From Bacillus chungangensis (GTDB lineage Bacteria; Bacillota; Bacilli; Bacillales; Bacillaceae_C): DNA of 40,000 nt. Both the position numbers and the translations under genes were made by a program. The stretch lies in contig NZ_JAUSTT010000001.1 of NCBI RefSeq assembly GCF_030812995.1, positions 182,396 to 222,395 on the forward strand. Reading direction: 5' to 3'. Under the pieces are notes generated by a model, which saw nothing but the letters and a program-made list of their open reading frames with translations, had not been told where the DNA came from and searched no databases. Shown here one piece after another: positions 2,260 to 11,844 of the stretch (position 1 is the stretch's first letter; every line of letters starts with the position of its first letter).

Positions 2260-2354
2260 ATCGTGCACCTCCCAGTACAACCTCGTAAGTAAAATTAAGT
2301 AACACTTTTATCGGAAGGAGGGCTTTCCCTCCATCCAGAGAATCTCTTTTCCCA

Positions 2355-2490
2355 CACTAATCGGACATTTCGCTTCCGTTATCCCCTACCTAGATTTCCC
2401 TCATTCCTAAATTGTTTATAAGCAGCAGACATTCCCCAAAAAATCTTCATGCAGTGCTGATTTTATCGTTTGGCTAAATGTGGGTAACGT
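2355..2490 (+). repeat. Degenerate copy (D) of the structured repeat family, in the lonA upstream leader
   Basis: aatcggacatttcgcttccgttatcccctacctagatttcc ... ggctaaatgtgggtaacg aligns by eye with the 3' half of the copies at 10207-10316 and 11728-11844 (aatcggacatttactggcagttatcccccac...agatgtgggataaac). Confidence 0.5.
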
Positions 2491-8495: not shown

Positions 8496-9542
8496 TCATT
8501 CATAAAGTATCGAAATTCCCTCTAACGTTTCTACAAAAGCAAGTGCCGCCCGCAAGGCAGCTTCGTCCAAACAATAAAACTCACAATTTTTCTTTATATC
8601 TAGTGTCTGATCGTATAATACCTGTGCCCGTAATAGATAAGCAACAGACCAAAGCAGTGCATTATCCTCCTCTGGTTCAAATGGATAAAGTAAAAAAAAG
8701 TGGTGTTTCATCATGGCGGTGATCTGTTCGTATAAGGTAGGATCCTGTTGCTCTACGATTTTCTGAAGCGTGTCTAACATTTGCAAATATAGCGGTGTTT
8801 CTAACACGTTTGCTGTATGGGCAGGGATAAAAGTTCCCTTTAAATGAAGCTTCTGTACTTCAATTTCTTTTTCTATTCTATGTTCTTTTAAAACATGGAA
8901 TAGAATAGCTTGAATAAATGGGTCTTTTTGAGCATCTTTTAAATAGACAATTAATTCTTCCATATAAGGATGAATATTTTTATGCGCCAATTGTGCTGCA
9001 AGAAATGATTGTTCTTTTAAATTCCCATTGTTAAACAATTTTTCTTGAATAACCGAATCACTCTGCTTTTCAACTATTTTTTCTGGTGAGCCCACAAGTG
9101 GTGTTTCTTTTGACATCCTGCTTTCACATAGCAGCAACAAATCTTGATAATATTCCAATTTATCATCTGGGATCTGCTGTTCCTCTATAAGCATCGTAAT
9201 GGCATCTGTCACTTTGCTTTCTTCCTGTAAATGCAGCAAAACCATTAAATATATATCGAAAATTTCTATATAATCGCCGATTCCTTTGCTTAACATGTCA
9301 TCACAATGAATCCTTGCTTTTTCAAAAGCGCCTGCCTCATAATAAGCTAACAAAAGCCCCATTCCAATTTCTTCATCTTCTGGATCATAATTCGCTGCTT
9401 CTGTAAAATAATGAATCGCTTTTTCATATTGACGATGTTCTAAAGATTCAAAACCTAAATGACGCAATCTATCTTCTAATCCAGGAAAAGGTATCAAATT
9501 ATTAATGTGTTTCTTTCCACCTGGTTTTTCCATTTTCATCAT
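8496..9542 (-). CDS. ysoA: TPR-repeat protein, YsoA-like
   Basis: 348-aa ORF with TPR-like helical repeats (YEKAIHYFTEAANYDPEDEE..., AYYEAGAFEKARIHCDDML). Its position next to tig matches B. subtilis ysoA. The true start may be the ATG at 9533 (MEKPGG), which has GAAGGA 8 nt upstream. Confidence 0.7.
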   Translation of the reverse strand: MMKMEKPGGKKHINNLIPFPGLEDRLRHLGFESLEHRQYEKAIHYFTEAANYDPEDEEIGMGLLLAYYEAGAFEKARIHCDDMLSKGIGDYIEIFDIYLMVLLHLQEESKVTDAITMLIEEQQIPDDKLEYYQDLLLLCESRMSKETPLVGSPEKIVEKQSDSVIQEKLFNNGNLKEQSFLAAQLAHKNIHPYMEELIVYLKDAQKDPFIQAILFHVLKEHRIEKEIEVQKLHLKGTFIPAHTANVLETPLYLQMLDTLQKIVEQQDPTLYEQITAMMKHHFFLLYPFEPEEDNALLWSVAYLLRAQVLYDQTLDIKKNCEFYCLDEAALRAALAFVETLEGISILYE

Positions 9543-9561: not shown

Positions 9562-9775
9562 ATAAAGTAAATTTTTCAGAAGTTTTTTCTTATTAGAAAG
9601 GCAAGGAACGCAACGTTTTCGAAAAAGGAATCCTTTTTCTTCGCCCATTGCTATGCAAAAAGCTTTCCTATTTACCAATTGGACTTTTGACTTTCAGTTA
9701 TCCCCTACCTAGACTTCTTCTATTCCTTTAATCTTAATCCAGAGGCCTTACTTACCAGTAAATTGTGAGTAAAAA
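9562..9775 (+). repeat. Degenerate copy (C) of the structured repeat family, ending about 20 nt from the ysoA start codon
   Basis: ataaagtaaattttt...aaaggcaaggaacgcaacg...ctttttcttcgcccattgcta...accaattggacttttgactttcagttatcccctacctagacttcttc...ccagaggccttacttaccagtaaattgtgagtaaaaa aligns by eye with copy R1, including R1's extra 59-nt segment. The first hairpin is eroded. Confidence 0.6.
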
Positions 9776-10034
9776 TCAAATTTTCTTTGGCAGCCTCTAT
9801 AAAAACTAAAAAAGTTTACCTTTTTTGGCAAACTTCTTTACACTTGATATTCGAACGTTTAAAAAACTCCATACGCTCTCTGTGTAAAATATGTTAATTT
9901 TATCTTTTTTAGGAGCTGCTTCTGGTCTTATATATAACGCTTATTTAAGTATAACGGTTGTAAAGAAATTATAAAAGTTCGAGATAATAAAAAATGACTA
10001 AAAATCAGAAAGAAAGTCTGCCAATATATTGCGC

Positions 10035-10316
10035 AATAAAGTAAAACTTCCATCAGTGGGGGTTTTCTCTCATCCCCCACTGATAAGAAGTAGAACAAAG
10101 GCTAAGATCGCAACGTCCTGTTGCAACGCCTTTGTGACCGACATCCTCAAAAAAGAAGAGCACTTTTTCTTCGTGCGATGCTGATTCAAGGAGCTTTCCT
10201 TGTCCTGTCGGCCCGAACCAATCGGACATTTACTGGCAGTTATCCCCCACATAGACTTCTTGATTACTCTAACTCTTGAGGTGGGGGTCTTACTGCCAGT
10301 TAGATGTGGGATAAAC
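10035..10316 (+). repeat. Structured repeat copy R1 (282 bp)
   Basis: Near-identical to 11614-11844 except for a 59-nt extra segment (10148-10206) and a different loop sequence. Hairpins: cttccatcagtggggg/cccccactgataagaag; acaaaggc...gcaac-gtcct-gttgc...gcctttgt; ccgac...gtcgg; tactggcagttatcccccac/gtgggggtcttactgccagta. Confidence 0.9.
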
Positions 10317-10417
10317 AAATGTAAGTAATATAAAATGAAACGAAATACGATAGGTCGTGCAGCTGTCTATAATGAAAAGAGTTACACTCGGATTATGTAA
10401 ATTAGATGTTGAATGAA

Positions 10418-10453
10418 TAAAAAATATCCGTAAAGGCCTTACCCTTACGGATA
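10418..10453 (-). terminator. Rho-independent terminator of the 180-aa gene
   Basis: Minus-strand hairpin tatccgtaa-(11 nt)-ttacggata followed by TTTTTTATT. Confidence 0.8.
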
Positions 10454-10491
10454 CAATTGAGTGAATACAGTATTGAAATAAAATGTTCAGG

Positions 10492-11034
10492 CTAGAGAGA
10501 GACCAAAGCACTTACTGTTAATTCCCCGAGATATCGTCCTAAATTTGTATCATATCCAGGTGTGATTGGTGCTGTTACTGTTGCGTCTACTACAATTCGC
10601 GCACTATTGCCAACTAATACCCCAGCTGCAATTAAAGCTTCTCCTACAGCAATTTCAACGTTCTGAGGGTTTCCGTCATTTGAATCTGTAAATAATGGGA
10701 TACTTAGTACAACCACTCCGAGTATATTTATAATTTCTAGCGTAGCAGTTACTGTTGCAGTTTCATTTGCTGCAAATGCATATGTGGCACTAACTGGCAA
10801 CACTACACTAAGAATTGGAAGTCCTGGGACTGCAAAAGTACTTCGGAACGTAACCGTTTGCCCTGATGCATTATTTGGCGACCAAATATAATTGTTGTTC
10901 CCATCTATTGCAGGTGATGTTAATGCTGGTGGTTGAAAAACAGCGGGTGTAGGAAGCGTTCCTGGTGCCGCAGCAGTGTCAGCGATGACTAAAGTATTCG
11001 TTGGCGTTGTAAATTCTTGTAAAACTATAGGCAT
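10492..11034 (-). CDS. Hypothetical acidic Thr/Ala/Val/Pro-rich protein, possibly a beta-sandwich spore-surface type (DUF3992/BxpB-like by composition only)
   Basis: 180-aa ORF with a strong RBS (AGGAGG 8 nt before the ATG) and its own terminator. It has no Lys, Cys or His and no internal Met, and no signal peptide or TM helix. The style of the C-terminal half resembles exosporium/appendage proteins, recalled from memory rather than searched. Confidence 0.75.
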   Translation of the reverse strand: MPIVLQEFTTPTNTLVIADTAAAPGTLPTPAVFQPPALTSPAIDGNNNYIWSPNNASGQTVTFRSTFAVPGLPILSVVLPVSATYAFAANETATVTATLEIINILGVVVLSIPLFTDSNDGNPQNVEIAVGEALIAAGVLVGNSARIVVDATVTAPITPGYDTNLGRYLGELTVSALVSL

Positions 11035-11321
11035 AAAAATGACCTCCTAACACTAAATTATTTGTCAATGTTAGTTGACGATAATATATTATGGTTTTCA
11101 AGTACTTTTGATTGGACAAACAGTATGGGAAAAACGAATATTTTTGATAGATGAAGAAAATAGGAGGTTCTTTCAGATAAAGAAGTATTTTAAATTTAAA
11201 TTAACTGCTGTGTGTTGCACCCTTATCACACAGATGAGGAGGCTGCTGTTTGATTCATTATGTTTACTTGTGTTCTCTTATTAACGTCAAAGATTACTTC
11301 TTAAATCTTTTTAGGAAAAAC

Positions 11322-11382
11322 GCCAGTCTTAACCGGAATTCTTTCTGAAGTATTCGGTTAGCTGGCTTTTTTTTCTTTTTTT
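11322..11382 (+). terminator. Orphan plus-strand terminator-like hairpin
   Basis: gccag-tct-taaccg ... cggtta-gctggc followed by a T-run of 8 or more. No convincing upstream plus-strand gene; the 69-aa track ORF 11075..11284 has no good RBS. Confidence 0.5.
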
Positions 11383-11613
11383 GATGAAAGTCTCTTTGGC
11401 GTCGCACCTTTCATTATTAATCCAATACACAAAAAATTAGTAACTCTCTTTTAAAGGTCTAAAAAATACTTAAAAAACACATGATCATACATAAAGAAGA
11501 TTTTTAAAAAGTTGACAAGCTAATAAATGGAACGATCCCAATACCGGATGAAACCTTTGAAAAGCATCTATTAACTATAAGGTTAAAAATATTGTTCTAC
11601 AAAATGATGACAA

Positions 11614-11844
11614 AATAAAGTGAAACTTCCATCAGTGGGGGTTTTCTCTCCCCCCCCCACTGATAAGAAGTAGAACAAAGGCTAAGATCGCAACGTCCTG
11701 TTGCAACGCCTTTGTGACCGACATCCTGTCGGCCCGAACCAATCGGACATTTACTAGCAGTTATCCCCCACCTAGACTTCTTTTCTTTGATTCCTCTTAC
11801 TCCCCGAGGTGGGGGTCTTACTGCCAGTTAGATGTGGGATAAAC
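11614..11844 (+). repeat. Structured repeat copy R2 (231 bp)
   Basis: Direct repeat of R1 in the same orientation. The first ~114 nt differ from R1 only by one substitution and the AT versus CCC change inside the C-tract. Confidence 0.9.

Follow-up and report, generated by a model that had tools for sequence, protein, structure and literature searches.

The window, that is, the whole stretch of 40,000 nucleotides of Bacillus chungangensis DNA analysed here, contains two hairpin-rich repeats in direct orientation, R1 and R2, and an ORF of 180 aa that lies between them on the minus strand without being part of either. Two decayed copies of the same repeat are found at lower coordinates, one of them in the lonA-lonB spacer. 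The features are listed below with their coordinates in the window, their strand and, where relevant, the type of evidence behind them.

About 2293–2490, plus strand: decayed copy in the lonA-lonB spacer.
9562–9780, plus strand: R0, an old decayed copy with traces of P1, of the core, of the 59-nt module and of P3, orthologous in sister genomes.
10035–10316, plus strand: R1 (282 nt), read as a bcr1-type element in which a Bacillaceae-1 module is nested, and a 59-nt module in addition.
10036–10040, plus strand: left ATAAA of R1 (TTTAT on the other strand), half of a 5-nt direct repeat (sequence).
10052–10084, plus strand: P1 hairpin of R1, ATCAGTGGGGG / CCCCCACTGAT (fold, RNAalifold).
10086–10147, plus strand: Bacillaceae-1 (RF01690) match of R1 (55.9 bits, gathering score 35).
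10148–10206, plus strand: 59-nt module of R1, flanked by TCCT at either end and lying within the loop of the second Bacillaceae-1 hairpin.
10215–10231, plus strand: conserved linker of R1, GAACCAATCGGACATTT.
10232–10300, plus strand: P3 of R1, a long imperfect hairpin (inverted repeat).
10311–10315, plus strand: right ATAAA of R1 (sequence).
10492–11034, minus strand: 180-aa ORF.
11614–11844, plus strand: R2 (231 nt), read as a bcr1-type element whose nested Bacillaceae-1 module is intact.
11631–11664, plus strand: P1 hairpin of R2 (fold, RNAalifold).
11666–11732, plus strand: Bacillaceae-1 (RF01690) match of R2, full length, loops GUCCU/AUCCU (77 bits, E = 1e-12).
11753–11828, plus strand: P3 long hairpin of R2 (inverted-repeat arm, fold).

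The original prediction described R1 and R2 as near-identical direct repeats, and a global alignment bears this out, with 214 identical bases among 223 aligned positions (96.0%) and gaps of 1, 59, 6 and 1 nt; a 37-mer taken from the 3' end of the repeat occurs exactly twice in the window, with 0 occurrences expected by chance. The alignment also places the differences where they had been announced, namely in the 59-nt block (10148–10206, TCCT on each side) and in hairpin loops; apart from the block, they are confined to the loops of the first and last hairpins and to three single bases. Compared with shuffled sequences, the fold of R2 reaches z = -6.7 on the plus strand and -5.6 on the minus strand. 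That the repeats directly flank the 180-aa gene does not hold: R1 lies 175 nt past its stop codon, beyond the gene's own terminator (10424–10454, minus strand), and R2 is located 579 nt upstream of its start codon.

The basic unit of the element is about 160 nt long and is made of a conserved 5' leader ATAAAGYGAAACTTC, the hairpin P1, a linker, the long hairpin P3 and a tail that is likewise conserved (TTA..TG.GGGATAAA), the 3' end GGGATAAA being common to all copies. Its borders read ATAAA, or TTTAT on the opposite strand, and were seen at both ends in 17 out of 17 aligned copies. It lacks the terminal inverted repeats of a classical MITE: comparing the first 30 nt with the reverse complement of the last 30 nt gave local scores of 4–6, for a shuffle mean of 5.2. 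RNAalifold applied to the aligned relatives returned 45 pairs, 11 of which have changed on both sides; 7 of these belong to P1, which has 13 pairs. Compensatory changes in P3 turn GGCAG/CTGCC into GGCTG/CAGCC or GGTCAG/CTGACC, and the R of GA-R-C in the linker covaries with the Y of the 5' AAAG-Y-GAAAC. We also looked at the GAACCAATCGGACATTT motif in viral contigs and discarded this lead, as 6 of the 8 matches are chance occurrences within coding DNA.

The C and G tracts that had drawn attention to the repeats are indeed there, CCCCCAC at 10074, 10244, 11654 and 11765 and GTGGGGG at 10056, 10281, 11635 and 11809, four tracts per copy making two hairpins, but the alternative pairings proposed for them are not conserved in relatives. 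There, P1 reads CAACAGGG/CCCTGTTG and the inner part of P3 CCGCC/GGCGG, which are unable to cross-pair. A riboswitch or attenuator operating through such pairings was set aside, since the tracts are not conserved in relatives and the downstream genes are functionally unrelated. As for the minus-strand terminator that each repeat was thought to end in, its hairpin did not pass our terminator scan, having a loop of 11–12 nt and an interrupted U tract (GGAAGUUUCACUUUAUU). The scan found no intrinsic terminator inside the elements on either strand, those at 10424–10454 and 9807–9840 lying outside, and the window scan found neither a promoter nor a canonical terminator carried by the repeated unit. 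An outward promoter in the conserved tail or leader was considered and dropped, the hexamers being poor and the TG motif not conserved.

No known Rfam family had been recognised in the repeats; a covariance-model check, however, returned RF01690, or Bacillaceae-1, with 77 bits for R2 and 55.9 bits for R1, above the gathering score of 35. The match corresponds to the middle two hairpins of the element and covers its central 67 nt. Both terminal loops of the family, RUCCU, are found in R1 as in R2 (GUCCU and AUCCU); in R1, the 59-nt block interrupts the second hairpin after AUCCU, and the 3' half of this hairpin, GTCGG, is found at 10207–10211. In relatives, the second loop often reads AUCGU (18 of about 80 copies), so that GGA is missing from the opposite strand. 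Like the members of the family, the window copies have two RUCCU-loop hairpins, are multicopy and occur in many gene contexts. In Rfam, however, RF01690 is a free-standing 67-nt sRNA core, whereas in the window the core lies inside a larger mobile repeat as one of its modules and, in one of the two copies (R1), has its second hairpin interrupted by the 59-nt insert. Bacillaceae-1 is known from B. subtilis, B. licheniformis and Oceanobacillus, among others, and the alignment published by Weinberg et al. has no member from the B. cereus group.

The rest of the repeat has relatives in the B. cereus group. The core-less form aligns with plasmid repeats of B. mycoides, B. cereus, B. thuringiensis and B. 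tropicus at 78–85% identity over 99–100% of its length, the matched repeat being about 158 bp long, and it occurs at no fewer than 40 places in the 5.5-Mb replicon NZ_CP093325.1 of Bacillus sp. N5-665. The outer modules of R1 and R2 are 80–84% identical to a B. mycoides copy, and the Bacillaceae-1 module is absent from all the B. cereus-group plasmid matches found. The group A "Bacillus cereus repeats" comprise bcr1 to bcr3 (Okstad 2004; Klevan 2007; Kristoffersen 2011; via PMC3184786, PMC6199540, PMC6542083, PMC3446304); in these sources, bcr1 is a repeat of about 155 bp with a 5-bp TTTAT direct repeat, two independent stem-loops showing compensatory changes, a non-conserved location and MITE-like behaviour. 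Our element and bcr1 share a length of about 155–160 nt, TTTAT/ATAAA at both ends and a single one at empty sites, two stem-loops kept by compensatory change, an intergenic position that is not conserved between close strains, the lack of terminal inverted repeats and frequent partial or decayed copies. They differ in their hosts: bcr1 is described as specific to the B. cereus group, whereas the element is also present in the Bacillaceae lineage of the window (whose nearest named MntH relatives are about 85% identical), in Virgibacillus proomii, in Pseudalkalibacillus hwajinpoensis and in several metagenome contigs. The label "bcr1-type" is used here on the grounds of homology to B. cereus-group repeats that fit the published description, and it does not tell bcr1, bcr2 and bcr3 apart. 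Judged by sequence, R1 and R2 are thus bcr1-type non-coding elements carrying Bacillaceae-1, two parts that were both already known; their combination, as well as the presence of such elements outside the B. cereus group, appears to be new.

The window copies owe their lengths of 231 and 282 nt to the one or two modules nested in them, Bacillaceae-1 being placed between P1 and the linker in this lineage. Indeed, the scaffold is found without any insert at L006, L007, L128, L067a, L093b, L141 and L151, with Bacillaceae-1 in R1, R2, L004, L056, L064, L067b, L083, L051 and L093a/c, and with other inserts at the same position at L005 and L021. The element is modular, the 59-nt block of R1 being a further conserved module, with homologues in R0 (9622–9669), in the R0 of L137 and in L125, L093 and L095. 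The long form amounts to more than the short form with something inserted, since the linker adjacent to P1 differs between them (GTTAGTT in long versus AAGAAGTA, CAGGAG or AAGGG in short forms).

MITE-like mobility, one of the interpretations first offered, is supported by the sister genomes, where presence and absence are clean and each empty site has a single A(T/A)AAAC. L137 and L152 lack both R1 and R2, and their empty sites read TGCGTAAAAAACAAATG and CAAATAAACATGATTC; there is a single AAAAAC at the empty R1 site of L137 and one ATAAAC at the empty R2 site (L137/L152), while the filled sites of the window read TGCGCA[ATAAAG..GGGATAAAC]AAATG for R1 and CAAA[ATAAAG..GGGATAAAC]CATCATTC for R2. 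A third insertion, in L153, occupies a CTCTATAAAAAG site at which both L138 and the window are empty. The comparison yielded three filled/empty pairs in all, with the TTTAT direct repeat described for bcr1, and the location of the copies differs between close strains (window versus L137/L152, L138 and L153). Units stand head to tail in L093 with one TAAAG in common, and Logan contigs end within the element. The multiple intergenic copies and the homology to B. cereus-group repeats of the bcr1 type point in the same direction. Copies that stay at fixed sites decay: R0 is identical to the L137 copy at 193 of 219 positions, the window copy having lost P1, and L138 has decayed copies at the corresponding lonA-lonB place, including one with a remaining RF01690 score of 70 bits. 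R1 and R2 are either independent insertions at A(T/A)AAAC sites or copies precisely lost in the sister lineage; insertion and precise excision look the same here because the outgroup, L138, lacks the whole segment. No transposase or recombinase was found linked to the element, nor any autonomous parent with the same ends among the loci fetched. On this evidence, R1 and R2 are probably recently inserted copies of a small, non-coding, non-autonomous mobile element of the bcr1 type.

Two direct repeats on either side of a patchily distributed gene could also be the boundaries of a cassette, either as attC-like recombination sites or as the direct repeats that remain when a circle bearing the 180-aa gene has integrated by the Campbell mechanism. 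The 180-aa protein belongs to no Pfam or NCBIfam family. Its best named relative, from Neobacillus, is 74% identical, whereas for the neighbouring ysoA no relative beyond the species group exceeds 40%; the repeats are spaced by 1580 nt, which is about as much as the window and L138 differ in size, and the GTTAGAT of the tail fits the attC core GTTRRRY. However, the repeat does not move with the gene: L137 and L152 carry the gene (internally deleted) and its flanks without the repeats, with one A(T/A)AAAC per site, and L138 has neither gene nor repeats, from which it follows that R1 and R2 are independent insertions rather than cassette ends. Moreover, the element does not delimit the segment by which L137 and L138 differ, single copies at other loci bracket nothing, the terminator of the 180-aa gene lies inside the bracket, and the list of neighbouring genes for the source contig shows no integron integrase. 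We thus regard recombination substrates bracketing a cassette, which had been put forward as an interpretation, as highly improbable.

The proposal of a multicopy structured sRNA agrees with the way in which the central 67 nt are filed in Rfam; the unit, however, has no promoter or terminator of its own, and its fixed copies decay. If the unit were a gene for a trans-acting structured RNA, its two RUCCU loops, which read AGGAY on the opposite strand, would be bound by a homodimeric protein, for example as a CsrA decoy made from the minus strand, and the copies would be gene duplicates. Weinberg et al. (2010, supplement) proposed Bacillaceae-1 as a trans-acting RNA binding a homodimer, and Gardner and colleagues noted CsrA-site matches on its reverse complement, the strand being uncertain (PMC4333381). 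We obtained a weak minus-strand match to PrrB/RsmZ (E = 0.25), but its 18.3 bits are far under the gathering score of 44 and the second minus-sense GGA loop is often lost, which is not what one expects of a CsrB/RsmZ sponge. The strand signals themselves conflict. On the plus strand, the Bacillaceae-1 stems have A.C in 21 cases versus G.U in 10 (unique stems), a hint of selection on a minus-sense RNA, and the G-rich strand carries the minus sense in 13 of 13 loci, while in 15 of 16 copies the minus sense faces the next gene; the consensus scaffold, in contrast to this minus-leaning core, folds better on the plus strand (alifold -45.6 versus -34.0). Strong covariation and conserved single-stranded stretches would also be expected of a functional RNA. 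On the other hand, a terminator at L004 abuts the minus-sense 5' end of the element, copies appear and vanish between sister strains, and the scaffold spreads without the Bacillaceae-1 module. All in all, we find it unlikely that the unit is a trans-acting RNA gene.

The orientation of the copies may be read in another way: the element could act in cis on its neighbours, as a read-through barrier, a stabiliser of mRNA in UTRs or an insulator placed before promoters, and be retained for this reason, as has been proposed for REP, BOX and bcr3. The start codon faced by the minus sense in these 15 of 16 copies is 19–580 nt away, promoter-like sequences often intervening, and R2, placed between the divergent mntH and the 180-aa gene, immediately precedes the promoter-like sites of mntH. 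According to PMC3446304, about half of the B. cereus bcr copies are transcribed in UTRs or operons and bcr3 correlates with decay rate, but bcr1 does not correlate with mRNA decay. A chromosome sample from the B. cereus group shows less of this bias (5 of 7 full-length copies), the genes downstream have unrelated functions, the hairpins score as a terminator on neither strand, and a sister strain has the same genes without the elements. Retention for a cis effect is, on balance, quite unlikely.

Returning to a mobile element of the bcr1 type, it would be moved at the DNA level by an enzyme that acts in trans and has its gene at another place in the genome. This enzyme would recognise the two subterminal hairpins and the conserved ends; such recognition of the hairpins would explain their compensatory changes, parallel in the short and long forms of each lineage. 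A single-strand route (HUH/IS200-IS605-like) or one resembling site-specific recombination may be envisaged, since either fits the lack of terminal inverted repeats and the fixed pentanucleotide. The analogy with IS200/IS605 derivatives (PATEs, REP/REPIN with RAYT) would cover the absence of terminal inverted repeats, the subterminal hairpins about 16 nt from each end, the insertion beside a fixed pentanucleotide that is also the element's own last five bases, the head-to-tail arrays and the strand bias relative to GC skew (13/13 in one sample). IS200/IS605 derivatives have a Y1/HUH transposase, however, and none seems linked to the element, while the strand bias is weak in the B. cereus-group sample; a 5-bp target duplication would fit equally, as duplication and non-duplication look the same because the element itself ends in ATAAA. 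Any effect of the Bacillaceae-1 RNA would then be that of a passenger, arising secondarily when the element is co-transcribed with its neighbours.

Modular interspersed repeats are familiar from other bacteria, with pneumococcal BOX (boxA-boxB(n)-boxC) and enterobacterial BIMEs. The element may be likened to them in having constant ends and a variable internal module and in being hairpin-rich, intergenic, non-coding and sometimes co-transcribed; the likeness would be one of organisation, BOX and BIMEs being unrelated to the element in sequence and its modules appearing as unrelated nested hairpin units rather than tandem boxes.

The literature on bcr1 in the B. cereus group and that on Bacillaceae-1 in Rfam had not been joined before, although one can be nested in the other. 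The question of the Bacillaceae-1 sRNA and its strand has to be considered knowing that its copies are carried by mobile DNA, are present in one sister strain and missing from another, and degenerate at sites where they are fixed. Elements of this kind break short-read assemblies, get annotated as non-coding RNA genes and create direct repeats able to delete the intervening DNA; their presence beyond the B. cereus group offers a wider set of genomes in which to look for the mobilising enzyme by phylogenetic profiling. One may go further and ask whether the Bacillaceae-1 "sRNA", among the most abundant orphan families of Rfam, is not a gene family at all but a portable hairpin cargo of several unrelated mobile repeats, which would scatter a protein-binding RNA/DNA module beside Bacillaceae promoters, the strand preference reflecting single-strand transposition at the replication fork; we hold this view to be doubtful for now, if worth stating. 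The cores of B. subtilis and B. licheniformis belong to different composite repeats, with a closing helix TCAGCGTGTCGAC...CACGCTGA, and another core-bearing scaffold family, from metagenomes, has tandem sub-repeats. A 190-bp repeat was reportedly described alongside the B. subtilis genome sequence. When all Bacillaceae-1 cores are considered, no bias in orientation relative to genes or GC skew was seen, either overall or in the largest scaffold family; in B. subtilis, judging by their coordinates and by a terminus that we take to be at about 2.0 Mb, four copies would be leading and four lagging.

R1 and R2 are real repeats and are well accounted for by known kinds of element. As originally predicted, they are near-identical direct repeats: a global alignment gives 214/223 identical aligned positions (96.0%) with gaps of 1, 59, 6, and 1 nt. 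The 59-nt gap corresponds to the block 10148-10206, with TCCT on either side, and the remaining differences lie in the loop of the first hairpin (P1), in the loop of the long last hairpin (P3), and at three single bases. One 37-mer taken from the 3' end is present two times, and no more, in the window, where none would be expected, and R2 gives a far more stable fold than its shuffles whichever strand is read (z = -6.7 and -5.6). They do not directly flank the 180-aa gene, as had been claimed, since R1 lies past the gene's own terminator (10424-10454) and R2 579 nt upstream of its start codon; nor does any of the element's hairpins, on either strand, satisfy the scan criteria for a terminator such as had been read into it.

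Features of the repeat locus (window positions)
~2293-2490: decayed copy in the lonA-lonB spacer
~9562-9780: R0, decayed copy with R1-like architecture
10035-10316: R1, direct repeat of R2
10086-10147, + strand: RF01690 match in R1, 55.9 bits (cmscan at gathering thresholds)
10492-11034, - strand: 180-aa ORF (L137 counterpart, 8876-9178)
11614-11844: R2, direct repeat of R1
11666-11732, + strand: RF01690 match in R2, 77 bits (cmscan at gathering thresholds)

The original prediction recognized no known Rfam family here, but cmscan at gathering thresholds assigned the core of both repeats to Bacillaceae-1 (RF01690), with a lower score in R1 because the 59-nt block splits the second hairpin; this block is itself a conserved module, with relatives in R0, the L137 copy of R0, L125, L093, and L095. 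The small loops GUCCU and AUCCU that had been singled out are the RUCCU loops defining the Bacillaceae-1 motif, for which binding of a homodimeric protein was suggested, the RNA being regarded as trans-acting (Weinberg 2010 supplement). Its reverse complement matches CsrA sites, and the strand was uncertain to its discoverers (PMC4333381); no function is established in the accessible literature. The module, when transcribed, could bind protein, and we treat it as cargo on the evidence presented here. It is also present inside quite different composite repeats, including one metagenome family with long-range pairing and tandem sub-repeats, and the form found in B. subtilis and B. licheniformis has a closing helix TCAGCGTGTCGAC...CACGCTGA. 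Larger composites were seen in metagenome contigs L008-L127 (e.g., L112, L123, and L110); in the commonest, GTTGATT..ACTGGGCG..CCTTGGGG pairs over a long range with CCCCAGG..CGCCCAGT..AATCAAC, and a ~38-nt unit (..TGCGCGAAAGCGAAGCGTCAGC..) is present in tandem, in one to several copies.

The outer parts of the element form a second unit, separate from the Bacillaceae-1 core. A genome-collection scan using a last-hairpin pattern retrieved copies in Virgibacillus proomii and a Bacillota MAG that have the 5' leader, P1, linker, P3, and tail as in the window, without the core; further relatives came from metagenome (core pattern) and viral-contig scans. The 17 aligned scaffold copies, drawn from several lineages, all follow one plan, and what varies is the insert.

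Scaffold plan in the 17 aligned copies, and insert carried
Part 1: leader ATAAAG-Y-GAAACTTC
Part 2: P1
Part 3: GTTAGTT or an inserted module
Part 4: linker GA-R-C.AATCGG.CWTTT
Part 5: P3
Part 6: tail TTA..TG.GGGATAAA
Without insert: L006, L007, L128, L067a, L093b
With Bacillaceae-1: R1, R2, L004, L056, L064, L067b, L083, L051, L093a/c
With another hairpin: L005
With Bacillaceae-1 and further hairpins: L021

Both kinds can stand side by side, as in L093, where head-to-tail units with and without the core have a single TAAAG in common.

This scaffold resembles bcr1 of the B. cereus group. The literature (PMC3184786; PMC6199540; PMC6542083; PMC3446304) describes bcr1 as a transcribed, MITE-like repeat about 155 bp long that has a 5-bp direct repeat, linked to TTTAT, on its flanks, forms two independent stem-loops maintained through compensatory changes, and varies in location among close strains. 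The window element likewise has a terminal ATAAA at both ends, i.e., TTTAT on the other strand, and each of its empty sites holds a single A(T/A)AAA, as is reported for bcr1. A core-less copy searched against PLSDB (blastn) gave full-length matches of 78-85% identity in plasmids of B. mycoides, B. cereus, B. thuringiensis, and B. tropicus. It also matched the 5.5-Mb, hblD-carrying replicon of Bacillus sp. N5-665 at 40 or more places, and a Pseudalkalibacillus plasmid. With R2 as the query, B. cereus-group matches were limited to the outer modules, and no B. cereus-group accession appears in Weinberg's Bacillaceae-1 alignment, which argues for a hybrid: by sequence homology, the window element is best described as a bcr1-type scaffold with a nested Bacillaceae-1, the bcr1 label resting on its B. 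cereus-group relatives fitting the published description. What appears to be new is that an Rfam "sRNA" lies nested within a mobile repeat of bcr1 type, that repeats of this kind occur beyond the B. cereus group, and that sister strains show clean filled and empty sites.

Sister-strain contigs were reached via MntH relatives (94-97% identity). L137 and L152 carry ysoA, R0, a 100-aa internally deleted version of the gene, and mntH, without R1 and R2; L138, L139, and L140 have neither the gene nor either repeat, and their ysoA-mntH spacer is 848 nt. With the element in parentheses, the R1 site reads TGCGTAAAAAACAAATG when empty (L137/L152) and TGCGCA(ATAAAG...GGGATAAAC)AAATG when filled (window); the R2 site reads CAAATAAACATGATTC when empty (L137/L152) and CAAA(ATAAAG...GGGATAAAC)CATCATTC when filled (window). 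L153 begins within an intact element end, with AGATAAAAAAGTTTACC adjoining it; neither L138 nor the window has an element at that site, which there reads CTCTATAAAA... These pairs bear out the proposal of a MITE-like mobile element; insertion or precise loss would account for them, and mobility is implied either way. The element is a non-coding repeat of modular build, gained by insertion at, or lost from, ATAAA/TTTAT sites. The rival proposal, that the repeats bracket a cassette, is contradicted by the internally deleted gene that L137 and L152 keep without either repeat: R1 and R2 are insertions and not cassette ends. Logan assemblies break within the element, as expected of a multicopy repeat. 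The L153 end (1-30; L138 ~9440-9450, window ~9790) represents a third strain-specific intact insertion, whose CTCTATAAAAAG site lies just past R0.

The hairpins of intact copies are conserved by compensation. RNAalifold predicted 45 pairs from five natural core-less copies, 11 of them changed on both sides, with 7 of these in P1 (CATCAGTGGGGG/CCCCCACTGATG to ATTCAACAGGG/CCCTGTTGAAT or CATCAGAGGGGG/CCCCCTCTGATG); at the base of P3, GGCAG/CTGCC becomes GGCTG/CAGCC or GGTCAG/CTGACC, and the leader Y covaries with the linker R (T-A in 13 copies, C-G in 4). The alternative pairings proposed for the C/G tracts find no such backing: the tracts are lineage-specific, making a conserved switch unlikely. 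R0 is present in each of the three sister lineages; the window copy no longer has P1 or most of the core, and its identity to the L137 copy (193/219) can be set beside that of the adjacent spacer (210/225). Copies at fixed sites are not maintained, suggesting that hairpin conservation in intact copies reflects the needs of spreading and not a per-locus host function. R0 and the start codon of ysoA are 19 nt apart, and the orthologous copies in L137 and L138 are in a better or worse state of preservation. The lonA-lonB spacer of L138 (1834-2370) holds two decayed copies, one still scoring 70 bits for RF01690.

We propose that the element is moved as DNA by an enzyme supplied in trans, which would read its conserved ends and both of its subterminal hairpins. 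Short and long forms within each lineage have identical lineage-specific hairpin sequences, which fits co-evolution with one enzyme. No TIRs were found in the element, and their absence, together with the fixed pentanucleotide, would fit a single-strand (IS200/IS605-like) or site-specific-recombination-like route, as suggested by the bcr1 authors.

Signals of strand and orientation conflict. In Bacillaceae-1 stems, A.C mismatches, which the minus strand would form as G.U, are more numerous than G.U pairs (21 to 10 among unique stems), whereas the scaffold (alignment A5) folds better on the plus strand (alifold energies -45.6 vs. -34.0). In a first sample, the gene 5' of the element's plus sense was on the opposite strand for 15/16 copies, and GC skew was negative on that sense in 13/13 loci (window, L004-L007, L021, L051, L056, L064, L067, L083, L093, and L128); in a 450-kb sample of the N5-665 chromosome, the orientation rule was kept by only 5/7 full-length and 3/6 partial copies, and other Bacillaceae-1-bearing repeat families had no such bias. 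We consider these strand and orientation signals a lead and not a finding. Among 83 distinct copies of the Rfam core, A.C is tolerated in the stems at twice the frequency of G.U; in the bcr1-type scaffold, it is on the plus strand that G.U pairs lie.

The 180-aa ORF belongs to no Pfam or NCBIfam family and is patchily distributed, its best named relative (74% identical) being from Neobacillus; one B. cereus relative is labelled "Exosporium leader peptide" in UniRef. It is absent from L138, and the deletion that leaves a 100-aa version in L137 and L152 is internal and in-frame; it may have been gained horizontally, independently of the repeats. Further along, window ~14000-40000 is a prophage-like region: directly beyond mntH, the source-contig gene table lists XkdX, a BhlA holin, an amidase/glucosaminidase, and tail-fibre-like and other phage genes.
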